Positions 41,991 to 64,000 of a DNA stretch of 64,000 nucleotides are shown one piece after another. Within the stretch, counting starts at the first letter, position 1; the number at the start of each line of letters is the position of its first letter. The position numbers were made by a program, and so were the translations under genes. Below the pieces are notes generated by a model. The model saw nothing but the letters and a program-made list of their open reading frames with translations. It was not told the origin of the DNA and ran no database searches. Origin of the DNA: Candidatus Kapaibacterium sp. Lineage in GTDB: Bacteria; Bacteroidota; Ignavibacteria; Kapaibacteriales; UBA2268. The DNA lies in assembly GCA_963664875.1 (NCBI GenBank), contig OY761611.1:3200001-3264000 (forward strand), written 5' to 3'.

Positions 41991-42020
41991 GATTATGGAA
42001 AAAAATGGAATAGGTGATTG

Positions 42021-42714: not shown

Positions 42715-42888
42715 TTTTATCCTTGTATTGTAGTTACTATTTTTGTAATGTCAGTAATTATTGTTCCTCTAAGTCAAAATTGCTGAAAACAAATAAAATT
42801 TTAGTCTATCTTAAATGGTGAATATAATTAGTGGCACGGTTTTTCGTCCATGTGTGTATTACTAAAACTACAAATCGGATAAATAGTG

Positions 42889-44398: not shown

Positions 44399-47300
44399 AT
44401 GCTAAAAAACAAAATAATATATATAATCATTATTTTGCTTATGCCTTTAGGTTTTCTCCAAGGCCAGAGCAATTTGATAAATCTTGGAAATAACGCCGTT
44501 GTTTCCGTGAGGGATAATGCCCTTATAAAAGTCAATGGCAATATAGTTGTTTCCACAGGTGCTGCTTTGACTGAAACTGGAGACAGCCGTATAAATGTAA
44601 CAGGTGACCTTGAAAATAACGGAACAATAGACTCCGATGCCGGCGAAATATCGTTTGTTGGTGCAGGCGATAGTGAAATCAAAGGAAGTGTCTCGCCAAA
44701 TTTGAATGATGTAACTTTAAATAAAGACAACTCTACAGACAATCTTTTTCTTGATAACAATGCAAATCTTACCGGAGATTTATCTGTAAATTCCGGTATT
44801 TTCCAGTTTGTCAATACTCAGGCAAGAGCACTCGATGTAGATGGGAGCTTGTCCATAGCGGCTGCAGGTCAGATAAATGTGCAGTCTTCTTTCAGGACGC
44901 ACAATTTCAATCTCGCAGGCAATTTGACTAACAACGGCATTTTAGACTTCCATGTTTTAAATGGCAACGTAACTCTCACTTTTGATGGCTCAGGAAATTC
45001 TATTATATCGGGTACGGGAGCTACAACTGATTTTGCATCCATTATTGTCAATAAGGCAAATCCTACTGACGAGGTACAGGTATCTCCTGCTGGTCAAAAT
45101 TTGACTAATTTCAATGCGATAGATGGATTTCTTACTTTGACACAGGGTATATTCCATTTTCTTGGTCAAGGTGTACTTTCCTTTACGAATTCGTTTTTTA
45201 CTCCGTCTGCCAATCTTTATTATGTACCTTCAGGTAGTGGACTTTGGATTGAAAATACAGGAGTAACTGTTTCTGCTCAAGATGCATCTTTAGTTCTTGG
45301 TGGATTGCTCCGCATGAATGGTGGTAACTTTAATGTTGGTGCCGGTAGCTCAGAAAGAAGTATATTTTATACCGACGGTTCAGAGTTGCATTTAGAAGCA
45401 GGGAATATATATATAAGTAATGCATTATGCCGTGATTTACTTCAGGATAATTCTGCAATTACTTTTACAATGTCGGGTGGCGACTTAAGCCTTGGCTATA
45501 ACAGGGCTGTTGTGAATACCCGTGCAATATTCGATATAGGCTATTCAAATTCGACATTCAACTGGTCAGGTGGTGATATTACCTTACCATTGAATTCAGG
45601 TATTTTTGCAAATGGCGATTTTTATGTAAAAACTGTAAACGGTACCGTAACAGGCGGTAGATTAGTAATCGAATCAGCCACTGCAAACGACCTTTTGCAA
45701 CAGTTCTCCATAAACAGCGATATGCCTATAGGCGAATTGCTAATGACTACAGATAATAACCCAAGAGTTGATTTATTAGATGACTTGGTTGTGCTGGGTA
45801 ATGTTACATTAACCAATAGAGCTATAAGAGCTTCTTCTTATTCTCTTACCGTTGGTGGACAGTGGATAAATAATTCTGCAACTCCGGCTTCATTTGATTA
45901 CGGCTCGGGGAATGTAATCTTTAACGGTTCAACAGATCAGACCATAGGCGGTTCACAAAGTACTGATTTTAATCAGCTTTCTGCCAACAAAACCGGTGGA
46001 AACCTTATTCTAAATCATGATGTGAATATTGCTTCTGCTTTGAGATTGGTTTCGAATACTATCTTAGATATGCAGTCAAATGATATTACTATTGCTCAGG
46101 GAGCTGATATCTTTTCAGATTTTTCTACAAATCAGGATTTTTCTGACACTAAATATATTATGAATTCAGGTGGTGCAACAGGTGGTAGGCTTATAAGAAA
46201 TCTTCAGAACAATCCTACTCTCCCTATGTCCGAGTTTATAATATTCCCTGTTGGTACTCCCGGGGCATATACATTTGCATGGGTCAGACTTTTAAGCGGT
46301 ACTTACAATTCTAATCCGGGAATTATAGTCCGACCGATAGCACAAGAGCATCCGCAAGTAAAGAAAAACAATGTCTCGCTCACAAAGTACTGGGAAATTT
46401 CTACATTTGGTAATTTCTCGCCCGGAGTAGAGGGCACTACACTAAGATTCCTTTATGATCAGGCAGAAGTGCAGGGCTCAGAAGGTAACTATCACATTAT
46501 CAAGTACCTTGGTGGTGGCTGGGACTTTGATCCGGCTTTGAGTAATAATATTGATTTTGGTAATAATTTTATCAAACCTGAACGATTTTCTAATGATATT
46601 TCAGGGGATTGGACTGCGGGCGAAGAAGACGCAGTAGCCGCAAAATATTACAGCATTGCTGATGGCAACTTCAGCGATCCTAATACATGGTCTCGAACTT
46701 CTTATGGTGATTTGACTCCTGCTACGACTGCACCAAACAGTAATACAGATTTGGTATTTATCGGAGATGGGAAAACAGTTACTCTTACTGCAAATACTTC
46801 GGCTGCAAGAAGAATTCAAATCGACAGTACCGGTACTCTAATGTGCAATGACTATTTAGTAAGTTCAACTGTAGATACTTTACTACTGAAAGCAGGTGGC
46901 GGCATTGGTATTGGACATTCCGGTAGTATTGCATTATCTGCAAATGACGGTAATGTACGTGCAGGTTACAGATTCTACAGCGATGATGCAATGTACATTT
47001 TTACCGGTAACAATAACCAAAGTGTAAGAGATATTCCTGCGAGAGTAAGTGCATTAGTATTAAATAAGACTCAAAACTCAAATATTGTTACCTTGAATAA
47101 GAGTATCGTTATAGGCGACTCTTTAATCATTAACGAAGGTACTTTAGATCAGGTTAATGACAGCTACTTTATAGATGGCGAAGCCCCGGGTAAATTCTTT
47201 ACTATGCGTGGCGGAACTCTTATACTTAAAGATGAATTTCCAACTAACTACCTTCCTGCAACTATGGAAGGCGGTACGCTTGATTTCTTCGGGATTTCCG

Positions 47301-50300
47301 GCATCAATGTTCCGAGCAATACCAGCAGTCCTGCTGTTTTAAGATACAATAATCTGACTTTCAGAGGTAACAGAGGTTATAATAAAATTACCTTTAGTCC
47401 TTCTGGTCAAATCAATATTGCCGGAAATCTAAGTATCACCGGAGCAACATTTTCCAACTTCCCTGAGACATGGATTGCTACAAACGGCTCGACCATTGCA
47501 TTTATCGGTGACGGCAATCAGAATATACCAAGACTTTCAGGATTAAATAATCAATGGGGAAGATTGAATTACTATAATCTTGTTATTGGCGGAACAGGTG
47601 TAAAAACTATCAATGATAATATTGATTATGTAGTTACAAATAATCTTACCATCAATTCTGCCACTTTAAGAATGGCAAATGGTGGAAACGAATTAGAAGT
47701 TTACGGGAACTGGTTAAATACCGGTGGTGGTTTTGATTATGGAAGCAATCAGACCGTTATATTTAAAACTATAAGCGGCGACGAAAACACTATTGCTCCG
47801 AACAATGTTCCATTCTACAGAGTTGAAATTGACGGTGCAGGTACTGCAAGATTTATTGATGAAATGACCGTTGAAAATGAGATTCAAATCAATTCCGGTG
47901 CTACTTTCGCAGGCGGTAATGCTGCAACCTTACATGTACTTGGGTTGTGGGATAATAATGGTAATCAATTCTCTCCGGGCAATTCGACTGTTTCATTCGA
48001 TGGTAATGCTGCCCAGATTATAGATATAGCAAACTCAACAGAAGAAAAATTTTATAATTTGACAATTAATTCCGGAAACAATGTAGGAGCTTTTACAAAT
48101 GGTACTCCTACTGCAAACAGACTTTGGGTAGAAAACAATCTTCATTTGGAGCGAGGTTATCTATATTTACCAAATTCAGATGATTATATAAGAGTTGATG
48201 GCAACGCTACCCGCAATGCAACCAATAACAGCTCTGCTTTTGTGCATGGTAATTACAGACAATATATTGAAAGAGATGCTGCCACTTATTTCATTCCTGT
48301 AGGTTACGAAGCAGGAACTGATGCATTTACCGGAATTGAATTAGAAATGACCGGCACAGGTGGCACAGAAGGATATTTGAATATTTATACTGACAATGTA
48401 GCTGCTAACTCACCTCGATTCAATGAAATAGACAGGAAATGGGAAATAACGATTCCAACCGGCTCTACTTTTGACCTTGGGGTTAGAAATTATGATGTGA
48501 TTTTTAATTTCCATCCTAATGATGCTGTAGGATTCAATACTGCTGTGTTTGAGACAAGAAGAAGAACTGACGGTATTAACTGGATAGCTCCAAATACCGG
48601 GGTTAGAACTGCAACTTCAACTGAGTCTCTAAATAATAATACTCTTGCCGCTATTGGTGGAGTTACAGAATTTATTGTAGGTGAATCATCTTATTCAATC
48701 TTCTATTCTGTTAATAATGGTAACTGGTCTAATCCTGCTACATGGTCAACAGTTGGTTGGGGAGGTGCTCCTGAGGCAGTTGTTACTCCATTATCTACAG
48801 ACAGCATTAGGATTGCAGATGGTTATACTGTAACATTAGATGTCAATTTTACTATAGACATTGACAAAGCGGTAGTGGTTGAAACTGCAGGTTTGACAAA
48901 TACTCCCGGCAAGTTAGAATTAGGGACAAATCAGATAAATGGTACAGGTGCATTTGTTGTCAAATCCGGTGGTATTCTCGGAATAGGCGATGCAAATGGT
49001 GTTACAGCAGCTTCAGCAAGTGGAAATATCAGAACTTCTATAAGAGATTACAACTACAACAATGCAAATAAATCATATTTTGTATATAACGGAAATGTAG
49101 CGCAGGTAACAGGTGACGGGATTCCCGATGTTGTTGGCGGATTAGTCGCAAATTCTTCAGTGGGAGTTACTCTATCTAAAGCTGTTGCTGTAGCCGATAG
49201 CTTCCTTATTCAATCGAATTATTTAGATGCAAGTGCTTCTAATTACAAACTTACGATAGGTGCGAACTGGATAAACCAAGGCACTTTTGTTCCTCGAGCC
49301 GGCACTGTCGAATTTAACGGTTCTGTCGGAAAAGAGATTACAAATACAAATATCGAAACATTTTATAATCTGATTATCAATAAAGCATCCGGAAATGTTA
49401 CTATCACTGACAACAGTGTTACTGTAACTAACAATCTAACCTTTACCAAAGGCAACTTAGATGCTCGAACTTACAGTCAGTTTGTAACTATAGATAATGG
49501 AGCAACTGTAAACAGAACCTCCGGTCATGTTGATGGAGAACTAAGAAAGTACTTAGCAACGGGCGATTTGCCGGTAGCTACCTACGAAGTAGGATTTGGT
49601 ACAGATTATACTCCTGTTGTTATTGATGTAAACGGTACGGGAGGCACTGCAGGTTTCGCAGGAGTAATATCCAATGACGGAGATCATCCTCAGTTTTTAA
49701 CTGCCGCACTCAACCCATCCAAAAATGTCCAGAGATATTGGTCTGTGAATACATACGGTTTTGACCTCGGTGCAGGCAGAACTTATGATATTACTTTAAA
49801 TTATCTTTATCCTGATGATATTAGAGGCGGGGCAGATCCTAATCTCTTTGAAGTGAGAAGATATAATCTCGGCTGGAATATACCGACTACAGGTATTAGA
49901 ACCAACTCATCAACACAGGGAACAGGAATAACTGATTTTGGTATAGATTTTATGGTAGGCGAACCGGGTGGAAGCGGTAGAGTGTTTTATTCTATTGCCT
50001 CAGGCGCTTGGAATACTGTCGGGAACTGGTCTGAAATAGGCTACGGCGGTGTAGCTTCTGCTAATTTCCCTGACTTAAATACAGATATTGTTTTTATAGG
50101 TGATAACAAATATATCGATTTGGATGCAAGCAGACAGCTGACTGCACTTACAGTTGAGAACGGTGGGAAGATTAATTTCTCCACGAATGTAATTACAGGC
50201 ACACAGTTTACATTGAAAAAAGATGGTATCATCGAAGTCGCTTCTGCTTCAGGCATTACAAATGCAACAGCTGCAGGCAATGTTCAAACTTCCATAAGAA

Positions 50301-53300
50301 ACTATAATCACTCAAATCATAATTCAGCAAGAATTATCTATTCAGGTAATGCAGCTACCACAGGTGATGGTATTCCAACTGCTTTAGCAGATGTGATTTT
50401 CAATACAAGTGGAACTATATTGCTTGAAAAGGACATTACAGTATCCGATTCTGTTTTGATTAGTTCAGGTACACTTTCTGCAAATAACTTTGATATTACT
50501 TTGAGTGGCAATTTTGTAAATAACTCTGGCTTTGTTCCTACAGCTTCGTCACTTATGTTTGAAGGTGGCAATACTCAATATTTGACAGGAAGTTCTGCCT
50601 CAGATTTGAATATATTAGAGCTCAACAAATCAGCAGGCAATCTTAATCTTGGCAATGATATTACAATAGCCTCGAATATCAATTTTACGAGCAACACTAA
50701 AATTATTCTGAATCAGAATGATATTACTATTGCTCCAAATGCCTTAATATTAGGTACTTCGCTTGGCTCAAACCAAATGATAGTTGCAGATGGTACTCTG
50801 ACTTCAGGTAGAATCATAAAGCTTTTTGCAGATGGCATTGCTGCTACAAGGAATATAGATATTCCGTTAGGAATTGGTAATGCTTACTACGGTGTTGAAA
50901 TAGATTTAGTAGCAGACTTTAGCTCTGCTCAGATGGATATCCGAGTAATAAACGGAAAGCATCCAAACAGAAGAGCAGGCTACGAAAATGTACTCAATAA
51001 ATATTGGACTATCAATACAAGTGGTATTTCAAATATACAAGAAGTTGCAGGTACAAATTATAAATTCAATTATCTACCGAGTGATGTAAATGGCACAGCT
51101 GCGTTATACGGTGCTGCCAGATATACAGGTTTTGGCTGGGATATAGATCTTGGAGCTACTTCTTCTGCCACCCCTTCACCAATAGATATTAAACAATATC
51201 AAACTCTAAATGGAGAGTGGACAGCAGGCTATCCAAATTCATTTAGATCCGGACAGATATACTATTCAATCGGCACAGGCGATTGGGACAATAACTTAGT
51301 TTGGTCTAATGTGTCACATTCCGGGGATGCGTCTCGTTTCTATCCGGGTAGATTGGAAAATGACACTGTATATATAGCCTCGAATGATTTGATATATTAT
51401 AATGTTTCCTCTTCTACGATTGGTATTTTGTCAATTGGTGATGGTTCACAAGGGCGATTAGATTTTAATGATTCACAAGATCAATCTCTTAGAATCAAAG
51501 AGGATTTTATTGTTGGAACATCAGGTCAGATGGAACAGTATAGTTCCGGCAATAGAAGAGATACTATTTATATCGAAGGTAATATTACTAATAATTCTAC
51601 CACATTAGTTAATTTTGACCATGGCGGTTCGGATTACACAATTCTCAAAATAGTAGGAACCGGCAATACGATAGTTTCAGGTACAGGGAATTGGAATTTT
51701 TACGATGTCTATCTTAACAAAACCGGAGGTCTTGCAGACACTCTTATCAATCAATCTTCCGGCTTCACCAATCAATTAGACTCTGATATTGACAATGGTA
51801 GATTTTTCTATCTGCAGTCAGGTGTCTTTAGGCATGATATAAATCTTTCTCTTCGTTTAGATGATAATAATATTACAAATGATCAGAACACATGGCCTGA
51901 TCCAGACCCCTTAGATTTCAGAATGGGTGATAATGCCGGTATAGATGTTAAACAAGGTACTATTCGTATCTGGGATGATTTGCACGCCGGCACAAACAAT
52001 AGCTTTTTGATAGATGGTGGCAGTCTTCTTGTGGGAAATGGTAATAACGAAAACTTTGTATATGGATTAAATAATAAGTTTGAAATCAGAAGCGGCACGT
52101 TTACAGTTCCAGCATGCTTCACACCAATTGTTGACCCTACTACTTATGAACCGCAGGGCACTTTGGATATGATAATAGCCGGCGGAACTATAACTGTTAT
52201 GGATATTTACTCCAATCAGACCAGAAACATTTATGGATTTGGTTTGCTTCAAAGTTCTTCTTTGACTTGGACCGGAGGAACTCTTATTTATTCTAATCCT
52301 ACAAATGGTGGTTTTGACTACGTTGTAAAAACGGGTACTTGGAGTGTTACAGGAGGGACTCTGCAGTTTGGTGAGCCGGGTAACTGGTTAGGTGCCGGAC
52401 AGAGACACTCTTGGGGCTCTGTAACTCCGGTTTACAACCTAGTGATTAACGAATGTCGCCAGAGTAGCACCGGTAACTATAGTTCGTGTATCCTTGTTGA
52501 AAACGATAATAATGTCCTCAATGATGTAATAATTGAAAGTAATGGTGTTTTGGATTTAGATGGTAATAATCTCTTTGTACAAGGTAATTTTATCAACAAT
52601 GGTAGATTTACTACTGATGGCAGGGAATGGAATTCGGGTGGTACAAAAACAGTTACTTTGAATGGTACAGGTGACCAAATATTCCAAAATGCAAATAACT
52701 ATGTAAACGCTCAATCTTCAAGCTCTATGAATAATGAGCCTTTTTATAACTTGGTTATTGATAAGCCTTCCGGTAATGTTATTCTTGGGGATTATGCAAA
52801 TTCCTATTTGAATATTAGAAATACTCTGATATTTGCTGAGAACAACACTGCTGTCATAGAGGCAAGAACAAACAGTCATTATGTTGCGATGACACCTCGA
52901 AGCTCTTCCGGTGATTTGGAAGAAGTAACAAGGCTGGGTCTTGGGCATGTAGATGGTACATTAATTCGCAATTTTTACAATGGTTCTGTAGATTACAGAT
53001 ACTTCTATGTCGGTGCAGGAGATGATTATACACCTGCGGAAGTAGAATTTAACGGTTCTTTTACAAGTGGTCCGATAGATGTTACGGCATTTGGCACTGA
53101 TCCTGCCGGATTGCCTGATAATGATGAAGATATTGATTTGACCAGAAATATTCAACGTTATTGGAGTGTTGAGGATAATGGCTCGTTCAATCTTGGCTCG
53201 GCTGATTTTGATTTGACTTTGCATTTTATAAATCCTACTGACTTTAGAAACAGTTCCAACTGGACTCTTTATAAACACTTTAGATTTCCTTTACCTCCGG

Positions 53301-56300
53301 GCCCTGCTCCGGTTAATTATGTGCAGTTAGATAATGTAGTCAGAACAGACACAACTACAAAATCGCTTGCTAATACCATATTTGGCAACTATATGATTGC
53401 CGAGCTTACAGGTACAAGATTTTATTCCATAGCTAATGGTGCGTGGGATGATCCTGCAACTTGGTCTAAAGCAGGCTATGGAGGTGTTCAGGAAACAATT
53501 GACTATCCGAATGATACAGGCGATGAAGCTTATATCGGAGATGGATTTACAGTTACTTTATCTAATCTTGTTCCTAATATCAAATCGACTGTTGTCGAAA
53601 CTCATAACGGTAAGCCGGGCTATCTTCAGATTGCTGACGATGCATGGGTAACAGGTCAATCTTTTGTCTTGAAAGACAGTTGCTATCTTGCGACTCAGCA
53701 TAATACAGGTTTGCAACCTGTAGGGATAAATGATGGATCAGTCAGAACTGTAGAAAGGATATTCGGAGTAGGGCACTATATCTTTAATTCCGATGTTGAC
53801 TTCCAGGTGACCGGTAACGCTCTACCTGACTTTATGCTTTCGTTTACAGTCAATAACACTGCTCCTTCAATTGGATTTAGAGTAGTTACAAATAATAACT
53901 CCAACGAGATTACCATATTTGATAGTTTAAATGTTGTTTCCGGTATGTTAGATGCCGGCAGCGGAATCGAAGCATTTAGTATCCGCGGAGGTATGTATTT
54001 TGGTGCTATGTCTGATTTGAGGACAAATACCAGAGTGTTTGATATCGAGGGCAACAGAACTCAATATATTACTTTAGATAAAGACGATAGCATCAGATTC
54101 AGACAGTTGAATATATATAAAACTTCTGCCCCTGATTCTGTTATCGTTTCTGCACTTGGCGATGACTCACACATCAGAGTTACAAACCGTCTTCGATTTG
54201 GTGGTGGCAACCGTGCTTTTATCAAAGTTCTTAATGATTCGCGTATCGTGATAAACGAAGGTGCATCTTTAGAACGTTTAGGAGCTACTCCATTTGGACA
54301 TATTGATGGCTATTTATCTAAGCCTATCGCTGCTGCTGCAGTTAATCAACAATTTGAAATCGGTTATGGTCTATCCTATGCTCCTGCTACTATACTATTA
54401 GATGCAGGCACTACCGGAGGCACTTACGGATTCCTAAATGCAAGAAATATTATGCCTGTACCTGATGAACCTTTCTATGGTAATAGAATGGATCCTAATG
54501 TCAGAGTACCAAGGTATTGGAATATTATAGCAGATCCTGATAACGGAATGCTGATGGGAGACAGAGAGCTCAATATTAGATTTGAAATGCCTTTGGCTGA
54601 AGCTGCTCTAATCAATCAGAATAACGGCGTTATCAGAAGAAGATCTATACCTACAGAAGTACCGGAATGGCAAGACAGAAGAGAAATTGACCTTGTATGG
54701 AGTCTTACAACTGTCGGTACAGTAGAATTGAAATCTAATCCGACTCAAAGCTGGCCGGGATTTGGTGACTTTTTCATTGGTGAAAAAGCCGCAAGGATAT
54801 TTTACAGCCAAGGCACTGGCGTTTGGAACGACCATAATTCTTGGGCTTTTGATGCTGCGGGTACTATTCCTGTTCCTGCCGGTGAATTCCCTAATCCTGA
54901 TTGGGATAGCCCTGAACTCTTTGAATTTGAATATAGAGATTCTGTAGTTATTCAAAATACTGATGTTATTACTCTAAATACTCAACCTCAGCTTGCTTAT
55001 GTTGACTTTAAAGATGACGGCAAGCTCGTAATAAGCCCGAACACATTTTTATCTCAAAGTGTTAGAGGCGAAAGTACTTTCAATATGGGTGATAATTTTA
55101 CTCTCGAGCTCAGAACTCCTGATGGAATAGAACCTTACACAGACGGAGGTGCCGGAGATGGTGTAGTCAGATTTGAAAACAGAACTTTCGAGCCGACTGT
55201 GAACTTTGGTTTTGCAGGTAATGGCAGTCACTACTTTGGTAGTGCATTCCCTGATGTGGTTAATAACATTTATGTAGATTCGGAAGGCGATGCTACATCT
55301 ATAACTGCCATAGCTCCTAAAGATGTTTCGATAAACGGCTCTCTTGACTTAATTTCAGGTAATCTCAGACCAAGGGATGCTTCAAGTGCTTTGCATTTTG
55401 CAGGAGATATTACTCTTGCTGCCGGGACAAGCTTTGATGCGACTCTTGACTATCTAAATAATCCGGTAACTACCACAAATTATATAGAAGGTAGTGGTGC
55501 AACTAATCAGACTATTTCAGGTGACGGATTTCTTGTGTTTAGTAATCTTGAGATGAATAGAGGAGCAGGCACAGGACTGCTTTATGCTGATAAAAGTCTC
55601 GAAATTGCAGGCGTTTTAGATATGCGTTCCGGAACAAATGCTAACCCGCAAATATTTGAAATAGGGAACAATGGAAATGTAAGCGTCAGCTCTGCAAATC
55701 CAAATGCGATAGTAGATTTTGGTGCAAATAATTATATACGAACTTCTGAAACTTCCGGTTCGCTCTGTAGAGAGATCACTACCGGAGAGACTTATGTATT
55801 TCCGCTTGGCTCATTAGATGCAGGTAGCAGCAACTATACGCCTGCTAACTTGATTTCCGGTGTGTCCGGCAATAACGGACAGGTATGTGTTCGCACATCA
55901 AGAGGCGCTCATGCCACTCTTGCAGGAGGGCATTCTGAATTGCCTGTAGAAAGGACGGAAGACTACCTTGCTCGCTACTGGGCAGTAACGGGAGTTACTA
56001 CTGATATTAGCGGAAGGTGGAATTTCAACTATGACAATAGTGACATTAGGACAGACGAAGCCAATATTGTCAGCATCGGCAGATGGAGCAATCCTTTTGA
56101 GACTACTCCGGGATCATGGCTTGCTGTGAGCGGCACTGTTAGCTTTGCTTCTAATATCTTTGATACTGATATAGAAATACCAAGTACTGATTTTGCAGGC
56201 GACTGGACAGCTGCAAATGAAGGTGCTTTCCGTTCAATTTTCTACAGCAGACAGTCCGGACTCTGGTCAAATGAGAACAGTTGGACTTATGCTAAAGATC

Positions 56301-57187
56301 ACATAGGACCAATTGCCGGAGTTGGATTATTCCCTGCTGCTGCAAAAGATTCAGTAGTCATAGGTGGAGGCAACAACGGCGTAGGCAATCATGTTATCAG
56401 ACTGGATGCAAATTACGAACTTGGTGGTGTACTTGTAGGTACAGGTACTTCTAACACAGGTACTCTTGATATGAGTGAATTTGTCATTACAGGTACTACT
56501 TTTAATGTTAGTCCTAATTCGACTATTAACATCGGTTCGCCTGCGGGTATCAATGCAATAGGTACCGATATTGGTAATGTGCAGACTACTGATACAAGAT
56601 ATTTTGGCGGTCTCGGCAGTGAAATCAATATAGTTATGAATGCAACGCAAGATCAGGCTCTGGGTAATGCTTTCCCTGTAGAAGTTAGGGATTTGACTAT
56701 TGCAAATACCGGTGCTGATGGCAATAATACTGTGCTTTTTGACAAAAATATCAGAATAAATAATGATTTGAACCTAAACAGCGGCACTGCAGATTTGCAA
56801 AACTTTTCGCTAAACACTGCAAACACAGGCACTGTCAATATGCTAAACGGTTCATGGCTAAGACTTAATAGTACAAACGATTTGTCCGGCGTAATCAATG
56901 GATATGCTGCTTATAACTTAGAGCTTGGTTCTGTGGTAGAATTTTACGGAGACAATCAGGTTATATCCAATCTACCTGCTAATCTTACTAATGGTTTAGC
57001 AACTGTTTGGGTAAATTTAAGCGGCACGAAATTTGTTACTTCCTCATTGCTTATTAGGGGCGATTTGTATATTCAGAATAGTGCGACTTTGCAAAATGAC
57101 CCAACAGTAGATGCACTGCAGATAAACGGAGATGTTTACAATGCAGCGCTGATAAATAACGACGGTGTGATTCAAATTTGCAATTAA
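44399..57187 (+). CDS. Giant (4262 aa) secreted modular beta-helix/Ig-like repeat protein
   Basis: Signal ..LQG|Q; seven FYS.xxGxW..xxxW caps (46646, 48701, 49985, 51260, 53420, 54800, 56240), each preceded by a (F/Y)xxG..YTP..(K/R)YW domain; ends NDGVIQICN; no T9SS CTD. Confidence 0.9.
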   Translation: MLKNKIIYIIIILLMPLGFLQGQSNLINLGNNAVVSVRDNALIKVNGNIVVSTGAALTETGDSRINVTGDLENNGTIDSDAGEISFVGAGDSEIKGSVSPNLNDVTLNKDNSTDNLFLDNNANLTGDLSVNSGIFQFVNTQARALDVDGSLSIAAAGQINVQSSFRTHNFNLAGNLTNNGILDFHVLNGNVTLTFDGSGNSIISGTGATTDFASIIVNKANPTDEVQVSPAGQNLTNFNAIDGFLTLTQGIFHFLGQGVLSFTNSFFTPSANLYYVPSGSGLWIENTGVTVSAQDASLVLGGLLRMNGGNFNVGAGSSERSIFYTDGSELHLEAGNIYISNALCRDLLQDNSAITFTMSGGDLSLGYNRAVVNTRAIFDIGYSNSTFNWSGGDITLPLNSGIFANGDFYVKTVNGTVTGGRLVIESATANDLLQQFSINSDMPIGELLMTTDNNPRVDLLDDLVVLGNVTLTNRAIRASSYSLTVGGQWINNSATPASFDYGSGNVIFNGSTDQTIGGSQSTDFNQLSANKTGGNLILNHDVNIASALRLVSNTILDMQSNDITIAQGADIFSDFSTNQDFSDTKYIMNSGGATGGRLIRNLQNNPTLPMSEFIIFPVGTPGAYTFAWVRLLSGTYNSNPGIIVRPIAQEHPQVKKNNVSLTKYWEISTFGNFSPGVEGTTLRFLYDQAEVQGSEGNYHIIKYLGGGWDFDPALSNNIDFGNNFIKPERFSNDISGDWTAGEEDAVAAKYYSIADGNFSDPNTWSRTSYGDLTPATTAPNSNTDLVFIGDGKTVTLTANTSAARRIQIDSTGTLMCNDYLVSSTVDTLLLKAGGGIGIGHSGSIALSANDGNVRAGYRFYSDDAMYIFTGNNNQSVRDIPARVSALVLNKTQNSNIVTLNKSIVIGDSLIINEGTLDQVNDSYFIDGEAPGKFFTMRGGTLILKDEFPTNYLPATMEGGTLDFFGISGINVPSNTSSPAVLRYNNLTFRGNRGYNKITFSPSGQINIAGNLSITGATFSNFPETWIATNGSTIAFIGDGNQNIPRLSGLNNQWGRLNYYNLVIGGTGVKTINDNIDYVVTNNLTINSATLRMANGGNELEVYGNWLNTGGGFDYGSNQTVIFKTISGDENTIAPNNVPFYRVEIDGAGTARFIDEMTVENEIQINSGATFAGGNAATLHVLGLWDNNGNQFSPGNSTVSFDGNAAQIIDIANSTEEKFYNLTINSGNNVGAFTNGTPTANRLWVENNLHLERGYLYLPNSDDYIRVDGNATRNATNNSSAFVHGNYRQYIERDAATYFIPVGYEAGTDAFTGIELEMTGTGGTEGYLNIYTDNVAANSPRFNEIDRKWEITIPTGSTFDLGVRNYDVIFNFHPNDAVGFNTAVFETRRRTDGINWIAPNTGVRTATSTESLNNNTLAAIGGVTEFIVGESSYSIFYSVNNGNWSNPATWSTVGWGGAPEAVVTPLSTDSIRIADGYTVTLDVNFTIDIDKAVVVETAGLTNTPGKLELGTNQINGTGAFVVKSGGILGIGDANGVTAASASGNIRTSIRDYNYNNANKSYFVYNGNVAQVTGDGIPDVVGGLVANSSVGVTLSKAVAVADSFLIQSNYLDASASNYKLTIGANWINQGTFVPRAGTVEFNGSVGKEITNTNIETFYNLIINKASGNVTITDNSVTVTNNLTFTKGNLDARTYSQFVTIDNGATVNRTSGHVDGELRKYLATGDLPVATYEVGFGTDYTPVVIDVNGTGGTAGFAGVISNDGDHPQFLTAALNPSKNVQRYWSVNTYGFDLGAGRTYDITLNYLYPDDIRGGADPNLFEVRRYNLGWNIPTTGIRTNSSTQGTGITDFGIDFMVGEPGGSGRVFYSIASGAWNTVGNWSEIGYGGVASANFPDLNTDIVFIGDNKYIDLDASRQLTALTVENGGKINFSTNVITGTQFTLKKDGIIEVASASGITNATAAGNVQTSIRNYNHSNHNSARIIYSGNAATTGDGIPTALADVIFNTSGTILLEKDITVSDSVLISSGTLSANNFDITLSGNFVNNSGFVPTASSLMFEGGNTQYLTGSSASDLNILELNKSAGNLNLGNDITIASNINFTSNTKIILNQNDITIAPNALILGTSLGSNQMIVADGTLTSGRIIKLFADGIAATRNIDIPLGIGNAYYGVEIDLVADFSSAQMDIRVINGKHPNRRAGYENVLNKYWTINTSGISNIQEVAGTNYKFNYLPSDVNGTAALYGAARYTGFGWDIDLGATSSATPSPIDIKQYQTLNGEWTAGYPNSFRSGQIYYSIGTGDWDNNLVWSNVSHSGDASRFYPGRLENDTVYIASNDLIYYNVSSSTIGILSIGDGSQGRLDFNDSQDQSLRIKEDFIVGTSGQMEQYSSGNRRDTIYIEGNITNNSTTLVNFDHGGSDYTILKIVGTGNTIVSGTGNWNFYDVYLNKTGGLADTLINQSSGFTNQLDSDIDNGRFFYLQSGVFRHDINLSLRLDDNNITNDQNTWPDPDPLDFRMGDNAGIDVKQGTIRIWDDLHAGTNNSFLIDGGSLLVGNGNNENFVYGLNNKFEIRSGTFTVPACFTPIVDPTTYEPQGTLDMIIAGGTITVMDIYSNQTRNIYGFGLLQSSSLTWTGGTLIYSNPTNGGFDYVVKTGTWSVTGGTLQFGEPGNWLGAGQRHSWGSVTPVYNLVINECRQSSTGNYSSCILVENDNNVLNDVIIESNGVLDLDGNNLFVQGNFINNGRFTTDGREWNSGGTKTVTLNGTGDQIFQNANNYVNAQSSSSMNNEPFYNLVIDKPSGNVILGDYANSYLNIRNTLIFAENNTAVIEARTNSHYVAMTPRSSSGDLEEVTRLGLGHVDGTLIRNFYNGSVDYRYFYVGAGDDYTPAEVEFNGSFTSGPIDVTAFGTDPAGLPDNDEDIDLTRNIQRYWSVEDNGSFNLGSADFDLTLHFINPTDFRNSSNWTLYKHFRFPLPPGPAPVNYVQLDNVVRTDTTTKSLANTIFGNYMIAELTGTRFYSIANGAWDDPATWSKAGYGGVQETIDYPNDTGDEAYIGDGFTVTLSNLVPNIKSTVVETHNGKPGYLQIADDAWVTGQSFVLKDSCYLATQHNTGLQPVGINDGSVRTVERIFGVGHYIFNSDVDFQVTGNALPDFMLSFTVNNTAPSIGFRVVTNNNSNEITIFDSLNVVSGMLDAGSGIEAFSIRGGMYFGAMSDLRTNTRVFDIEGNRTQYITLDKDDSIRFRQLNIYKTSAPDSVIVSALGDDSHIRVTNRLRFGGGNRAFIKVLNDSRIVINEGASLERLGATPFGHIDGYLSKPIAAAAVNQQFEIGYGLSYAPATILLDAGTTGGTYGFLNARNIMPVPDEPFYGNRMDPNVRVPRYWNIIADPDNGMLMGDRELNIRFEMPLAEAALINQNNGVIRRRSIPTEVPEWQDRREIDLVWSLTTVGTVELKSNPTQSWPGFGDFFIGEKAARIFYSQGTGVWNDHNSWAFDAAGTIPVPAGEFPNPDWDSPELFEFEYRDSVVIQNTDVITLNTQPQLAYVDFKDDGKLVISPNTFLSQSVRGESTFNMGDNFTLELRTPDGIEPYTDGGAGDGVVRFENRTFEPTVNFGFAGNGSHYFGSAFPDVVNNIYVDSEGDATSITAIAPKDVSINGSLDLISGNLRPRDASSALHFAGDITLAAGTSFDATLDYLNNPVTTTNYIEGSGATNQTISGDGFLVFSNLEMNRGAGTGLLYADKSLEIAGVLDMRSGTNANPQIFEIGNNGNVSVSSANPNAIVDFGANNYIRTSETSGSLCREITTGETYVFPLGSLDAGSSNYTPANLISGVSGNNGQVCVRTSRGAHATLAGGHSELPVERTEDYLARYWAVTGVTTDISGRWNFNYDNSDIRTDEANIVSIGRWSNPFETTPGSWLAVSGTVSFASNIFDTDIEIPSTDFAGDWTAANEGAFRSIFYSRQSGLWSNENSWTYAKDHIGPIAGVGLFPAAAKDSVVIGGGNNGVGNHVIRLDANYELGGVLVGTGTSNTGTLDMSEFVITGTTFNVSPNSTINIGSPAGINAIGTDIGNVQTTDTRYFGGLGSEINIVMNATQDQALGNAFPVEVRDLTIANTGADGNNTVLFDKNIRINNDLNLNSGTADLQNFSLNTANTGTVNMLNGSWLRLNSTNDLSGVINGYAAYNLELGSVVEFYGDNQVISNLPANLTNGLATVWVNLSGTKFVTSSLLIRGDLYIQNSATLQNDPTVDALQINGDVYNAALINNDGVIQICN

Positions 57188-57310
57188 ATAGTATAACAAT
57201 GACTAAGATATGATTTAAAGATATTAAGATATACAATAAACTAACAATACGTACTTTTGACAAGAGTCTGTATTATTACTGTAAGTATTTGAAATCAAAA
57301 GGATTAGAAA

Positions 57311-57326
57311 TAAGTAGAACTACTGA
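57311..57326. promoter_or_regulatory. Second operator candidate TAAGTAGaacTACTGA
   Basis: Matches TA-GTAG---TAC--A of 42699-42714; lies in the 233-bp gap upstream of the 762-aa gene. Confidence 0.4.
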
Positions 57327-57420
57327 ATTTTAAATAGAAAACTATCGTTACATTGTATTACGTATAAAAACCGAAGTTGACTAATTTTACGTATATATTC
57401 AATAAATAGGGAGATATCCT

Positions 57421-59709
57421 ATGAAATTTTTTACAAAAAACTGGCGAAGGTACAGTGCTATAGCTGCTTTAGCACTTGGTCTTCTCGTAGTTGACGGCCA
57501 GTCTCAGACTTTGAAAAATCAAAGTACTGGTCGTATCGTTAATAATGGTTCAATCAAGTTTACTTGTGAGGCAGGTCAATTCCAAAATGCAGCAGATCCT
57601 ACAGTTGCTACCACTTTGGTAAACAATGGTACAATTGAATTTGAAGAAAATGCATCTGCAACAGGTAAATTACAATTTACAGATTTGACCGGTGCAGCTG
57701 CAGGCAATTCTTTTGGATTGGCACCTACAAGCAGAGTACCCGGTACTGTTATTTTCAATGGTGGTGGTGCTCAGGTAATTCAGTCAGACTTATACTTAAC
57801 CAACTTAGATTTAGGTGGTTCAGGAAATAAGACTTATGATGGCGACATCTATGTTGCAGGAGCTTATACTGTTACTACAGGTACCCCTGTTTACGCCAAT
57901 GCAGGCGGAAGCGGTGGCGGAATGACTTTCTATTATGATGGTGCTACTGATCAGACTATCTATGCAACTGCCGGCGGACACACATACTATAACTTAGGTT
58001 TCTTAGATGCGGGTGTTAAAACTTTAGCCGGTGCTACGCTTGCTACTACAACAAATGACGCAACAATTGGTGGTACTCCTAGTACTCGTGCTTCCGGAAA
58101 TGTTATAATCGATGGTCAGTTAACAGTCAACCATTCTTTACTTCAAGAAGCAGGTGCAGGTAACTTGATTATTGATAATATCACAGATGCAAACACAGGT
58201 ACTGTTCTATTAGCAGGTACTAATGCAGGAACAGGTAACTCACTATTAGAAGCAACTACCAATATCGGAAATGGTGGTGTTTTGAGAACTACAGGTGACG
58301 GTGTTTTGACTGTAGCAACCGGAGCTAATTTGAATGTTAATGCCGGTACATTTAACTTAAATGCAGGTAATGCTGATATTGACGGTACTTTAGCTGCTGC
58401 TGCTACTGCAGGTGTCATTGATGTAGATCAATCAAGAACTTTAACAATATCCGGTACATTTACAAATGCAGGTGATGGCACAAACTTACTGTTTGCTGAT
58501 GAAACAGTAGCAGGTGATGGACTTGCTTCTACAGTAATTTATGATGGCGGTGCGGCTCAAGCTGTTGTTACTACTATCGCATCTAATCCTTATGCTAACT
58601 TGCAGGTAATAAATGCTGGTGCTAAAGTTCCGGGTGGAAATATTTATGTAGCTAACGACTGGACTCTTGGCGATGCTGACTTTGCAATGGGTGCTAACAC
58701 TTTATTTATGACAGATAATGCTGCAACAGCAACATACAATACCGATCACGAGGTTACAGGTCGTATGAATCGTACTATGGGTGTTGGTGGTCCTTTGACA
58801 TTCAACAACTCATCTACAACTGTAGCTGTTACTGCTAATACTGCAAGCTTGACTGACTTGACATTAAATGTTCAACCGGGAGGCTATTCAACAGACGCAA
58901 CTTATTCTGCGCATTATGATGGTACAACTGACGTTGACCGTTTGATTACTTATGATTATTCTCAAACAGCTGCAGACTGGGTAGCTATATTTGAATTTGG
59001 TTACAAGAAAGCTGAAGAACCTGCTTACGCTCCAAATCCAGCTGGTGGTAACTACGACCACACTTCTCTTCGCTTCCGTGAGTTGACAGCTGCTGATGTT
59101 TCTGAAAAAGTTGCAACAGGTTCTGCTACTGGTGACGATTATGCTGCTGCAGTCTTTGCTTCCAGATCATTGCCGGGCATCCAACCGGGTACTGCAACAT
59201 TAGCCCAGATTGATGATCCTGCTCCGTTATTCCTACGTGGCGGTCCAACAACTTTCATCTCTATCACAGATGGTCGTTGGTCTAACCCTAATACTTGGGA
59301 TGAAGGTGCTGAACCTGGACCAGGTGACTTTACAATCATCGCTACAGGTACTCAGGTACACGCAGGTGGTATAGGTTCCGGTGGACGTGACCCTTTTGCA
59401 GGCGATGAAACATACCCTGATGAATTAACAGCTGGCTGTACAGTTCAGACAGGAGCTGCTTTGATCTTTGGTAATAATATCAATCAGAATTTTGCTTTAA
59501 GTACAGGTGCTTCTATGACAATCGAATCAGGTGCAGATGCTGATCCAAATCAGGCAACATTTGCAACATTCTTGTCTTCAACACCTGCATCTTATACTGG
59601 TAGAGGTTTGTTCATCTATGAAGGTACAAACCCAACTGTTTTAAAAACTCCATTATTTGATAACGCCGGTTTATTCTATAACGACGGCGAACTTCAAGTG
59701 TGCGACTAA
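57421..59709 (+). CDS. Single-module paralogue of the giant protein; candidate major filament subunit
   Basis: Signal ..GQS|Q; beta-helix, Ig-like domain, FISITDGRWSNPNTW cap (59254); ends NDGELQVCD; AGGGAG SD; CGT/GGT/ACT/GCT-rich codons. Confidence 0.85.
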   Translation: MKFFTKNWRRYSAIAALALGLLVVDGQSQTLKNQSTGRIVNNGSIKFTCEAGQFQNAADPTVATTLVNNGTIEFEENASATGKLQFTDLTGAAAGNSFGLAPTSRVPGTVIFNGGGAQVIQSDLYLTNLDLGGSGNKTYDGDIYVAGAYTVTTGTPVYANAGGSGGGMTFYYDGATDQTIYATAGGHTYYNLGFLDAGVKTLAGATLATTTNDATIGGTPSTRASGNVIIDGQLTVNHSLLQEAGAGNLIIDNITDANTGTVLLAGTNAGTGNSLLEATTNIGNGGVLRTTGDGVLTVATGANLNVNAGTFNLNAGNADIDGTLAAAATAGVIDVDQSRTLTISGTFTNAGDGTNLLFADETVAGDGLASTVIYDGGAAQAVVTTIASNPYANLQVINAGAKVPGGNIYVANDWTLGDADFAMGANTLFMTDNAATATYNTDHEVTGRMNRTMGVGGPLTFNNSSTTVAVTANTASLTDLTLNVQPGGYSTDATYSAHYDGTTDVDRLITYDYSQTAADWVAIFEFGYKKAEEPAYAPNPAGGNYDHTSLRFRELTAADVSEKVATGSATGDDYAAAVFASRSLPGIQPGTATLAQIDDPAPLFLRGGPTTFISITDGRWSNPNTWDEGAEPGPGDFTIIATGTQVHAGGIGSGGRDPFAGDETYPDELTAGCTVQTGAALIFGNNINQNFALSTGASMTIESGADADPNQATFATFLSSTPASYTGRGLFIYEGTNPTVLKTPLFDNAGLFYNDGELQVCD

Positions 59710-59717
59710 TATATTTT

Positions 59718-59751
59718 ATAAAGAGGCAAGCCTATCGGCTTGTCTCTTTAT
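59718..59751 (+). terminator. Strong hairpin after the 762-aa gene
   Basis: ataaagaggcaagcc-tatc-ggcttgtctctttat. Confidence 0.8.
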
Positions 59752-59811
59752 ATATAATACAAAATATTCATGATTTAAGAACTTTAAAAATATACCAAAA
59801 ATATAGTAAAA

Positions 59812-61911
59812 ATGACTACCCGAATATACATATTGATTTTGATGTTTGTAATGCTTTTTGGCTCTGTTGATGCACAGAGACTTAAAAGCACGGGTACGAT
59901 ACGTAATAACGGAAAAGGCAAGATTAAAGTAGAAGGTGCTCTCCAATCTAAAGATAATGGGGCTGTCATAGAGAACGAAGGCAAAATCATCATAGAGGGC
60001 AATGCTGAAATCAATCAGGACACTCTTGGTGGGTATGTCGAATATAATTGGAATGAAAATGTAGCTTATCAGTATGTACCGTCTTTGCATTATAAAAATG
60101 TGCATTTTTACGGTACAACTAAGAAACTACTGGATACCACCTACAAGAGAAATTTTGTAGCTATGGATACATTTTTTGTGAATAATGATGTGGAGATTCG
60201 TACTGATTCTTCGCATTATATCTATACTCAAGGCAGAGTAACACACAACGGATACATCAATAAAACAAGTCTGAAAGGTAAGCTGATTTACAAAGGCGAC
60301 GAAGTTCAAAATGTGGATGGTAAAGGCGAATACAAAGAGCTTGTTTTAGATAACCCCACATCCGCCAAGGTTATAAATGAGGGTGGCTTTAAAGTGGTTA
60401 CCTCTCTCGAATTGAAACAAGGTGAATTCCAAAATACAGATTCTACTAATTTCATTATGGGCAATAAAAGCAATCTTATCCGACATGTCGGTGCTTCTAT
60501 CGCTTATGAGCCGCAATTAGAAGGGCAACTTTCTGTAACGTACAAAGGTCAGGGCTCGCTTATCACTGGTGCCGAAATACCGAAAGGTACAAACGACCTT
60601 GCAAATCTGGAAATAAGTAATACGGATACTTTGTTTTTAGATAGAAATGTGGATGTGAATGACTCTCTATGGGTCAATGCTAATGTTGTAACAAACGATG
60701 ATACGCTTTCTCTCAGAAACAGAGTTAATCCGTTTTATGGTGCTTCTCCTGATTTAGAGATAGCAGGTAATTTCAGAAGAACTGTCATTGAAGTTGGTGA
60801 CACAATCCTTCTCAATAACAAATACACCTTTGCATTGTTTGAGTCTTTAGAAGACAAAGGCGATGTGGCTGAACTTACATTCCATATTTTACCATTAACT
60901 CAGCCTGATAACGGCAAAAAAAAGGTTAGTAGGCGTATAAATATTTCCGGTAGAGATTTAGCCGGAAATGAAATAGCAGACAAATTTAAAATGCAGTTCC
61001 GTTATGCATGGAGACATGCTCCGGGCGAAGATTATGATGAAACAAATAATCTAAAAGTAAGCGAACTTGTGCTTCAGAGGTGGAAAGATAATAACTGGAT
61101 TAATTTCCAATCCGACGAGCCTTTTATTTTGTCTGATGAATCTTGGGCTTATGGCTTTAGCAGTGTAGTAAATTCTACAGGTGTATTTGCCATAGGCGGG
61201 CCGGACTTCGAGTTGCTTGTTTTCAGAGCTAAAGTAATGCTGGAAGGTGCTTACCGCACCGGTAAATTTGCAACAATGGCTATGGATTTGAATAAGCGAA
61301 ACGAGATTCCATTGACTCCTCCGTCAAATTCTTATCCTTACAATTTAGATCCAAAACTTCCGACCTTGTCAGCAATTCCTGATTCTGTAGTGGACTGGGT
61401 TGTGCTCGAATTTAGAAAAGAAAAAGTAAATGCTGCAGAAAGATTTTTCAAAACTGCGTTTATCCGTTATGACGGTAGTATAGTCGGCATAGACGGCAAA
61501 AACGATATAGTGTTTGATTATGCAGATGGCATAGATTCCGGTGGCGGAGATTATTATGTATTTATTCGTCATAGAAATCACTTAATGCTTAGGTCTAAAA
61601 ATCCGTTACCGATTTACCCTGACAGCAATAACGTACTTTATGATTTCACTTCTAACAGTGATTTGATAGAGGGCGGTGTGCAGTCACTCAAACTGCTTGA
61701 TATTGACAAAGACGGCAATAGACTTTTTGGTTTGCGGGGTGGGTATAAGTTTGACCAAGTCGAAGACGATTTTAGATTCACATTAGATCCGGACAGATTG
61801 GCTGCCTATAAAGAATTTACTCTAATCGGTTATCTTTGGGGCGATTACAATATGGACGGTATAGTAAACACTAAAGATTTTAATATTAGCTGGAATAATA
61901 GACTCAAATAG
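59812..61911 (+). CDS. Secreted beta-helix/Ig module protein with C-terminal dockerin-like domain
   Basis: Signal ..VDA|Q; N-terminus resembles the 762-aa protein; C-terminal KVMLEGAY..DWVVLEFR..RHRNHL..GDYNMDGIVNTKDF. Confidence 0.8.
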   Translation: MTTRIYILILMFVMLFGSVDAQRLKSTGTIRNNGKGKIKVEGALQSKDNGAVIENEGKIIIEGNAEINQDTLGGYVEYNWNENVAYQYVPSLHYKNVHFYGTTKKLLDTTYKRNFVAMDTFFVNNDVEIRTDSSHYIYTQGRVTHNGYINKTSLKGKLIYKGDEVQNVDGKGEYKELVLDNPTSAKVINEGGFKVVTSLELKQGEFQNTDSTNFIMGNKSNLIRHVGASIAYEPQLEGQLSVTYKGQGSLITGAEIPKGTNDLANLEISNTDTLFLDRNVDVNDSLWVNANVVTNDDTLSLRNRVNPFYGASPDLEIAGNFRRTVIEVGDTILLNNKYTFALFESLEDKGDVAELTFHILPLTQPDNGKKKVSRRINISGRDLAGNEIADKFKMQFRYAWRHAPGEDYDETNNLKVSELVLQRWKDNNWINFQSDEPFILSDESWAYGFSSVVNSTGVFAIGGPDFELLVFRAKVMLEGAYRTGKFATMAMDLNKRNEIPLTPPSNSYPYNLDPKLPTLSAIPDSVVDWVVLEFRKEKVNAAERFFKTAFIRYDGSIVGIDGKNDIVFDYADGIDSGGGDYYVFIRHRNHLMLRSKNPLPIYPDSNNVLYDFTSNSDLIEGGVQSLKLLDIDKDGNRLFGLRGGYKFDQVEDDFRFTLDPDRLAAYKEFTLIGYLWGDYNMDGIVNTKDFNISWNNRLK

Positions 61912-63236: not shown

Positions 63237-64000
63237 ATGTTGCTCAAAAATATCGCATTATTATTTTTAGTTTTAGCAAGTACTAAGTTACTTGCTATTG
63301 ATTTTATTACTCCGCAAGCAGATGAAACAATAATCGCAGGCAGTACCTATAAGCTGACTTGGGAGGAAAAACCCGGTTCCTCGTACAACTTATTCTACTC
63401 TGAAGACGGCGGTGAAAATTATACCCAAATTGCCGAAAATGTAACTACCAACGAATATGATTGGCAAGTTCCCGAATTGAACGAATTGAATATTAAACTA
63501 CTTTGTGTAGCTAATTATTTTGTAGAACCACAGCTTTTGTATTCAGAAGATTTGCAATCGGGTAGAGTAAACTCCATATCTTATTCAGAAGATGGTAAGC
63601 AAATACTGATTACTACATTTGATAATAATATCTACGTCTATTCTCCAACATTTACGAGAGTGCAAGTCTTTCCGTTCCCTACTTTAGAAACCATTTTTGA
63701 TGCTGATTTCATAGGGCACGGCACAATAATATTTAGTTCCGGTGGCAGAGTATATTCTTTTCAAATAATGGATGGCATACCACATGAAATTGCAGCAGGG
63801 AATTTTGATATAAACGAAAACATAGAAAAACTGGAATATGGCAGTTCTCGTTTGGAAATTGCGGCAGCTTCTTATGACGGATCTTTCAAAGTGATAGATT
63901 ATCTGACAGGTATTGCAAAAAAAAGCTTTAATTCGGTAGATGGGCATGAATTTTATAGCCTGAAATATTCAAAATACGAAAAATACATTGCTGCCGGCGA
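63237..64000 (+). CDS. Secreted protein with Ig-like domain and WD40-like propeller, 3' end outside window
   Basis: Manual translation MLLKNIALLFLVLASTKLLA..YKLTW..YSEDGGENY..YDWQVP..VNSISYSEDGKQIL..AASYDGSFKVID, open to the edge. Confidence 0.75.
   Translation, partial: MLLKNIALLFLVLASTKLLAIDFITPQADETIIAGSTYKLTWEEKPGSSYNLFYSEDGGENYTQIAENVTTNEYDWQVPELNELNIKLLCVANYFVEPQLLYSEDLQSGRVNSISYSEDGKQILITTFDNNIYVYSPTFTRVQVFPFPTLETIFDADFIGHGTIIFSSGGRVYSFQIMDGIPHEIAAGNFDINENIEKLEYGSSRLEIAAASYDGSFKVIDYLTGIAKKSFNSVDGHEFYSLKYSKYEKYIAAG

Follow-up and report, generated by a model that had tools for sequence, protein, structure and literature searches.

Can a beta-helix continue from one polypeptide into the next? 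The question is raised by three consecutive genes of Candidatus Kapaibacterium sp., which lie in the 64,000-nucleotide stretch of DNA analysed here (positions 3,200,001 to 3,264,000 of contig OY761611.1, assembly GCA_963664875.1; hereafter the window) and encode a giant secreted protein of 4262 amino acids (aa) followed by proteins of 762 and 699 aa, to which we refer as the giant, 762 and 699. An earlier note on this DNA, made from the sequence alone, had proposed that the beta-helix left open at the C-terminus of one chain stacks on the open N-terminal helix of the chain that follows. Our analysis indicates that the chains probably do join head to tail through these ends, a conclusion reached in silico for 762 and 699 and by inference for the giant and 762. 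For the former pair the proposal stood up, owing to seamless natural fusions, a continuous model of the fused joint and a controlled complex prediction; for the latter, what points to a joint comes down to homology and cysteine placement. The features on which the argument turns are given below in window coordinates, with the kind of evidence in brackets.

44399..57187, + strand: the giant secreted protein, 4262 aa (open reading frame, ORF, and translation)
56240..57184, + strand: last module of the giant (residues 3948-4262), cap plus helix (ends ...NNDGVIQICN)
57421..59709, + strand: 762 (ORF and translation, cap motif, AlphaFold2 model)
57505..57576, + strand: N-end of 762, residues 29-52, QTLKNQSTGRIVNNGSIKFTCEAG, including Cys49 (N-end hidden Markov model, HMM)
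59254..59706, + strand: cap and C-terminal, putatively open helix of 762, residues 612-762 (complex prediction, C-end HMM, model)
59812..61911, + strand: 699 (ORF and translation, alignment A2 of 18 orthologues)
59875..59937, + strand: N-end of 699, residues 22-42, QRLKSTGTIRNNGKGKIKVEG (modelled interface, fusion joint)
61207..61908, + strand: C-terminal domain of 699, residues ~466-699 (conserved in alignment A2)

Judging from the translations, each of the three proteins opens with a signal-peptide-like leader. In the giant the leader is followed by an uncapped N-terminal helix with an inter-helix domain, by six modules that each consist of a capped helix and an inter-helix domain, and by a final capped helix that lacks such a domain. 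In 762 an uncapped helix (~29-470) leads into an inter-helix domain; a cap follows at residue 612, and after it a short, open-ended helix of ~150 residues runs to residue 762. 699 likewise begins with an uncapped helix and an inter-helix domain, and closes with a C-terminal domain that is conserved; it has neither a cap nor the C-terminal end motif described below. The cap motif, [FY][FYI]S..G.W, was found at residues 1435, 1863, 2288, 3008, 3468 and 3948 of the giant and at residue 612 of 762, and a variant in which F replaces W (KYYSIADGNF) stands at residue 750 of the giant; the corresponding DNA starts in the giant gene are 46646 (the GNF variant), 48701, 49985, 51260, 53420, 54800 and 56240. 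Because the caps start at these residues, from 750 to 3948, the spacings of 685, 428, 425, 720, 460 and 480 aa claimed in the earlier note are exact. A motif scan found no cap in 699 or in 762 upstream of residue 612. The same note had described the three proteins as starting mid-helix and capless; the three N-terminal strings that it quoted do stand directly after the leaders and the cap is indeed missing, and "mid-helix" is loosely right, the N-terminal helices being of full length.

Module-against-module BLAST comparison resolved the giant into a chain of related units, each made of a cap, a helix and an inter-helix domain of ~140 aa, and its last unit (residues 3948-4262) aligned to the first ~270-300 residues of the internal modules, stopping short of the inter-helix domain. 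The claim that the giant and 762 both end in helix rungs after a cap, with no inter-helix domain, is thus borne out by BLAST and, for 762, by strands modelled to residue 760. The inter-helix domain is a genuine repeat (alignment A6), occurring seven times in the giant and once in each of the two smaller proteins, so that the recurring domain of the claimed cap-to-"Ig-like" module is real; "Ig-like" is a mere label, because the domain has no match in Pfam, gave only E>0.2 in a sequence search of the PDB and is poorly modelled by AlphaFold2, with a predicted local distance difference test (pLDDT) <50 for residues 512-630 of 762. The caps may have a likeness in the G8 domain (PF10162), with its W....W cap region where a beta-helix begins. 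Pfam places G8 on residues 778-841 of the giant, right after its first cap, with a whole-protein score of 39.7 bits against a cut-off of 22.9 and no single stretch passing alone; it finds no G8 match in 762, cap included, or in 699, and only one of the eight caps reaches Pfam.

In the AlphaFold2 model of 762, beta strands begin at residue 30 and continue to residue 760, with a pLDDT mostly of 75-95 over residues 30-470. Regular short strands in the AlphaFold2 models, together with the structural matches given below, assign these proteins to the right-handed parallel beta-helices (pectate-lyase-like solenoids). A Foldseek search of the 762 model against the PDB returned nothing at E<=0.001, the best match being Ag43 at 5.4e-3.

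The evidence that carries the proposed joint begins with proteins in which it has been made covalent. Five representative proteins of 1451-1509 aa (P0097, P0128, P0141, P0149 and P0155) consist of a 762-type part followed by a 699-type part, and such a fusion is also encoded at two loci of related genomes, L032, where it is P0097 itself (100%), and L031, where it is 82% identical to P0097. These collinear fusions, five representatives and two loci, provide a Rosetta-stone link between 762 and 699. At the joint, the 762-type sequence ends in ...NGGRIEVSQ and its last residue directly abuts the first mature residue of the 699-type sequence, SLVSTGLIRNNG..., with no signal peptide, linker or intergenic region in between; in alignment, 699 residue 21/22 coincides with P0097 residue 766, which is the joint. 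Since both signal peptide and intergenic region are gone, the fusion is not read-through.

At the two fused loci, a gene of the 426-aa type that follows 699 in the window lies at 14317-15651 (+) and overlaps the end of the fused gene by 4 bases; neither a giant nor a WD40 nor an OmpA gene was found near the fused genes of L031 and L032. In P0129 (911 aa), in the region of residues ~103-160, a short N-terminal helix ends in the donor-type motif NKGIVEIGN, an acceptor-type start, QNFHNDSTATFINRGTVRF, follows 8 residues further on, and the protein end is of the 699 type; from its sequence, P0129 looks like a second, independent kind of fusion.

The fused segment was modelled with AlphaFold2 over 516 aa, with the joint at local residue 196. 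The model had a mean pLDDT of 87.9 and a predicted template modelling score (pTM) of 0.88, the pLDDT reaching 94-98 over local residues 181-440, and the joint did not interrupt it: the 10-residue blocks of local residues 181-220 had pLDDT values of 95, 97, 95 and 97, and strand 191-200 crosses the joint. Long beta-helices formed by single chains align across it, among them Fap2 (model residues 157-516, Z 11.6, root-mean-square deviation (rmsd) 5.0, 341 residues aligned), 7jvi (173-458, Z 11.2, rmsd 4.0, 267 aligned) and VacA p55 (20-410, Z 10.7, rmsd 4.4, 259 aligned); EtpA and Ag43b do likewise. The top match by VIA-align was the polygalacturonase 1bhe_A (Z 13.6, rmsd 3.9, 237 aligned), and 69 chains reached Z>=8; sequence identity to these adhesins and enzymes is 4-13%.

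For the separate chains, residues 22-330 of 699 and 606-762 of 762 were modelled as a complex with ESMFold2. The complex score was 0.94 (individual runs 0.94, 0.87 and 0.94), compared with 0.00 for the best of three controls. In the benchmark, 58 of 80 solved complexes and 2 of 110 mismatched pairs attained the mark applied to this score, counts that hold only roughly here because our own alignments were used. The runs shared >=98% of their contacts, with a partner pLDDT of >=84. In the modelled interface, residues 22-42 of 699 face residues 744-762 of 762, along with 703, 706, 708, 732 and 734, and contacts such as 25/746, 30/752, 38/758 and 40/760 (699/762) have residue numbers that rise together on both chains; the register would therefore be parallel, rung on rung. 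Short of proof, the ESMFold2 model supports binding of 762 to 699.

The termini that meet in these models carry recognisable motifs. The candidate donor end, at the C-terminus of giants and 762-type proteins, reads ...N.G.IE[IV]G[QND]-COOH, or ...NDG..Q[IV]C[ND] in this genus, and the candidate acceptor end, at the mature N-terminus of 762-type and 699-type proteins after the leader, reads Q.L.N..TG.I.N.G.I. Among all 2165 ORFs of >=200 aa in this genome, searched with an HMM for either end, only 762 (E 1e-8, residues 718-762) and the giant (E 1.4e-4, residues 4210-4262) gave a significant match to the C-end model, in both at the extreme C-terminus, and only 762 (E 7e-16) and 699 (E 3e-3) to the N-end model. 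A 1:1:1 chain that follows the gene order would be enough to account for these two donor and two canonical acceptor ends. The C-end HMM matched 122 of 155 family proteins, and 116 of these 122 matches lie at the C-terminus; the six internal ones belong to four fusion proteins, to P0129 and to P0142, where the match lies 10 aa from the protein end.

Over their last 16 residues the giant and 762 share 50% identity, and the N-ends of 762 and 699 are ~48% identical over 21 residues (counted by hand in the profile alignment), falling in the same profile columns; yet by BLAST at E 1e-3, 699 resembles none of the other modules. At the sequence level, conservation is far stronger at the ends than in the helices that they bound. 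Donor ends are also more alike within one genome (0.44) than between genera (0.28), over n=6 independent groups.

The arrangement of the genes is conserved as well. A 762 homologue is present in 33 of 41 related genomes, and a 762 profile search retrieved representative proteins that are mostly 700-860 aa long, 1922 of them at E<=1e-3 and 240 at E<=1e-30; the homologue search showed no longer forms of 762, which by that search's own statement is weak evidence. We fetched 20 loci from the 33 homologue-bearing related genomes, and the order 762-type, 699-type, 426-type is kept in all 20, in 19 with separate 762 and 699 genes and in one (L030) with a hybrid ORF; the 426-type gene comes after the 699-type gene in 20/20. 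A giant with the C-end motif lies immediately upstream in 9 of the 20 loci. The last module of the giant occurs in 23 of the 41 related genomes, where it always reaches the protein end, with 77-78% identity within the genus and 34-50% in other families. In the hybrid at L030, 7720-10104 (-), and in P0148, a 794-aa ORF replaces both genes; it combines a 762-type N-terminal helix (762 residues 1-532) with a 699-type C-terminal domain (699 residues 473-699).

Besides homology, cysteines provide what we have on the joint between the giant and 762. 699 contains none, 762 has Cys49, Cys673 and the penultimate Cys761, and the last cysteine of the giant is likewise its penultimate residue. In the profile alignment, Cys49 of 762 corresponds to G42 of 699, which lies inside the modelled interface beside donor residues 760-762; a donor end seated on the N-end of 762 would therefore bring two cysteines together. 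The positions follow lineages: in this genus both donors have Cys at position -2 and in L023 both have it at -8, with an N-end Cys in 762 in both cases, and L015, L027 and L029 have no Cys at any end. All five genus orthologues of 762 have one N-end and one penultimate Cys, and P0006, P0007 and P0008 hold just these two. In L016, 762 has both end cysteines and the giant C-end and 699 have none, so that the partner for either could only be an end of another copy of 762 or of the same copy, which suggests a 762-on-762 contact. Across 135 full-length representatives, 89 of 313 cysteines fall in two terminal zones, where 8% would be expected, and N-end and C-end cysteines co-occur (both 19, N only 38, C only 11, neither 67; odds ratio 3.0, p 0.011), in statistics that ignore phylogeny and take signal-peptide ends from a rough rule. 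In the comparison of loci this rule missed Cys49 in L011 and L012, and the two rows were set right by eye.

The most economical model is a chain running from the giant to 762 to 699, with the helix unbroken across each joint. The three proteins would be exported separately and then joined in gene order into one segmented beta-helix fibre, in which the first rungs of each following chain would carry, in parallel register, the last rungs of the right-handed parallel beta-helix before it, so that the solenoid would continue over the chain boundary. The C-end of the giant would dock on the N-end of 762 in the same manner, and in this genus that joint would probably be locked by a disulfide between the donor's penultimate Cys and Cys49 of 762. 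762 might be inserted once or several times per fibre. 699, which has no donor end, would form the proximal end, and its C-terminal domain may anchor the fibre to envelope proteins whose genes lie downstream, namely the 426-aa protein, a WD40 protein bearing a type IX C-terminal domain and a member of the OmpA family. From this context the fibre might be a cell-surface adhesin or glycan-binding filament on the order of 100 nm long, a length that we estimated from residue counts at ~4.8 A per rung.

Several points weigh against this model. All structural statements on the joint are predictor-based. In the alignment behind the fused-segment model (A4), the 699-type N-terminal rows are shifted by about one rung at the joint, and the alignments for the complex were self-made and unpaired. 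The complex controls were unrelated proteins, none of them a beta-helix, so the score may partly reflect a readiness of the predictor to put any open solenoid ends together. A single fusion event may lie behind the five fused representatives and the two loci. Cys761 of 762 finds no cysteine partner in the Cys-free 699. The giant's own N-end, as well as the N-end of 762 in genomes that have no giant, has no identified partner, and an unpartnered N-end is evidently tolerated. As to export, Pfam and NCBIfam searches at E<=0.1 found no type IX C-terminal sorting domain (Por_Secre_tail or type B) in the giant, 762 or 699, and Pfam found no type V translocator barrel or TPS domain in these proteins or their neighbours.

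Other explanations have to be set beside the head-to-tail chain. One, possible though doubtful, has 762 polymerise head to tail into a (762)n shaft, with the giant at the far end and 699 terminating it, much like the tip adhesin, major subunit and anchor of a pilus. The closeness of its N-end to the modelled acceptor of 699 (~48% over 21 residues) would allow this, and the paired N-end and penultimate cysteines of 5/5 genus orthologues, the L016 locus where only 762 carries end cysteines, the terminal enrichment of cysteines with its N/C co-occurrence (odds ratio 3.0, p 0.011) and a hairpin just after the 762 stop codon all speak for it. The fused 762-699 proteins, however, leave no free 762 C-end, and polymerisation is therefore no conserved requirement; the two donor and two acceptor ends of the genome fit a plain 1:1:1 chain, and among the 57 representatives that have a Cys at the N-end, 38 lack one at the C-end. 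That there is no interchain contact, the ends being ordinary termini of independent beta-helices with a generic rung motif and the fusions plain domain fusions, strikes us as unlikely. N.G.I rung-like motifs do occur inside helices, where the HMMs gave weak internal matches, MAFFT mixed up N-terminal rungs of 699 with C-terminal rungs of 762, and the complex controls were not beta-helices; yet the fusion joint is residue-exact and linker-free, conservation at the ends far exceeds that of the helices in between, significant HMM matches are restricted to true termini, gene order is fixed in 20/20 loci, and the complex scored 0.94 against 0.00 for the best of three controls, with a mark attained by 58/80 solved complexes and 2/110 mismatched pairs.

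We give very little credence to the idea that the C-terminal motif is a sorting or secretion signal, like the C-terminal signals of other export routes, with no structural joint. Its extreme C-terminal position in 116 of 122 matches would suit such a role, as would the lack of a recognised export route over the outer membrane, but the motif is internal in the fusions and in P0129, so that a free C-terminus is not needed, 699 lacks it despite having the same operon and a signal peptide, and it does not match type IX C-terminal domains. Just as improbable is a closed monomer in which 762 bends round so that its short C-terminal helix covers the N-end of the same chain, possibly with a Cys49-Cys761 disulfide: both end cysteines do lie within one protein, but ~440 helix residues separate the N-end from the inter-helix domain, by our estimate roughly 90-100 A to be spanned by a short link, the same domain-to-cap link joins successive helices in line in the giant, and the model seats the C-end of 762 on the N-end of 699.

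The surroundings of the three genes bear on how the fibre proposed here might be exported, anchored and expressed. The remaining features of the window are as follows.

42018-42674, + strand: LuxR-type response regulator (receiver and GerE domains), directly upstream of the fibre genes (Pfam)
42886-44376, + strand: 496-aa protein with a Peptidase_S74 domain, just upstream of the giant (Pfam E 8.8e-6)
59727..59742, strand not assigned: GC-rich hairpin with T-rich sequence behind it, immediately beyond the 762 stop codon (pattern match only)
61951..63231, + strand: 426-aa protein, directly after the 699-type gene (synteny)
63237..63998, + strand: WD40 beta-propeller protein, of which only the start is present, as it runs off the window (Pfam)

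Pfam finds no pilin, usher or chaperone family in the operon, and by our reading the leaders have no lipobox cysteine. Pfam and NCBIfam returned no match for 762, 699, the 426-aa protein, the C-terminal domain of 699 or the inter-helix domain. Against Pfam, the C-terminal domain of 699 had none at E<=5, dockerin (PF00404) and type IX domains included, and a sequence search of the PDB with the 699 family gave only E>0.2. Two motifs are invariant in this domain among the 18 orthologues of alignment A2, H587-R-N-H-L591 and W694-N-N-R, and reading the translation we noted a dockerin-like stretch, D.N.DG...D...WNNR or, as also written, D.N.DG..N..D, at the end of 699. The language-model look-alikes of the domain are unnamed Bacteroidota clusters, one with 15% dockerin-bearing members, the sole pointer to dockerin besides that reading. 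The 426-aa protein is possibly a type IX secretion cargo or anchor, its language-model look-alikes carrying Por_Secre_tail (score 0.97, which is a lead only). Orthologues of the WD40 protein in L012, L023, L016 and L022 have a type IX C-terminal domain (1.4e-9) and are followed by a gene for an OmpA-family outer-membrane protein.

Upstream, Peptidase_S74 is an intramolecular chaperone domain, as found in phage tail fibres and endosialidases. Loci L017, L020, L024, L025 and L030 also have S74-like stretches, in large ORFs that precede the cassette, and the 496-aa protein may therefore belong to the same system. The LuxR-type protein is a possible regulator of the fibre operon.

As regards transcription, the hairpin at 59727-59742 may act as an attenuator between 762 and 699 that lowers read-through into 699, if its sequence is a guide. 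Terminator-like sites numbered 22, compared with 11.4 in shuffles (standard deviation, sd, 3.0), and only the hairpin after 762 is meaningfully placed; promoter-like sites were not above shuffles (68 vs 62.9, sd 8.1). Contigs from one wastewater metatranscriptome run (X1), 90-99% alike, cover 57365-59707 and 60805-61405, with none on 56500-57235 or the remainder of 699; from this similarity, a close relative was present in that wastewater. These contigs cannot rank expression and the library possibly contained DNA, and the relative's 762 and 699 genes are possibly transcribed.

To our knowledge, terminal beta elements that extend a chain are known for pili, the Lpt bridge and small amyloid-like solenoids, and we know of none for giant secreted beta-helix proteins. 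Chaperone-usher and Bacteroidota type V pili resemble the proposed fibre in that separately exported subunits assemble head to tail, a terminal beta element of one completing or extending the fold of its neighbour, and in that adjacent genes encode the subunits of tip, shaft and anchor; in pili, however, a single strand fills the groove of an incomplete Ig-like pilin, whereas here whole rungs would stack and no partner is missing a strand. In the LptC-LptA-LptD bridge, too, the C-terminal edge of one protein meets the N-terminal edge of the next to form a continuous beta structure in fixed order, but as a beta-jellyroll and a periplasmic lipid conduit, unlike the right-handed beta-helix and giant modular fibre considered here. 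In the beta-solenoid polymers of bactofilin and of curli CsgA/CsgB, rung-on-rung stacking at solenoid ends likewise serves as the polymer interface; their subunits are small and homopolymeric or nucleator-driven, whereas here three different large secreted proteins would have distinct donor and acceptor ends. Papers on such polymers include PMC4372379 and PMC12345197. Pfam matches none of the fibre proteins to the bactofilin or curli families. Fap2, EtpA, Ag43, pertactin and polygalacturonase share the right-handed parallel beta-helix fold, but their helix lies within one polypeptide and they are type V secretion proteins or a soluble enzyme, while the proteins studied here have no translocator or TPS domain. 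We found no description of such a split beta-helix system in literature listings and abstracts.

Joining separate secreted beta-helix proteins end to end would be an unusual route to a long cell-surface fibre. A bolder proposal, which we hold only tentatively, is a general "snap-together" end code by which any C-end (of the giant or 762) docks on any N-end (of 762, 699 or perhaps the giant itself). If that were so, disulfide-locked giant-(762)n-699 filaments of variable length and composition could be built, and they would constitute a new filament class on bacterial surfaces, distinct from both pili and amyloids and widespread among Ignavibacteriota and related lineages. If the head-to-tail chain itself is correct, short, recognisable end motifs would allow a solenoid to continue over several polypeptides, offering a way round export limits on very long proteins and natural, orthogonal "connectors" for the design of protein fibres. 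It would also explain the fixed gene order of such operons, and would make many "hypothetical" proteins of 700-860 aa annotatable (1922 representative clusters, E<=1e-3).

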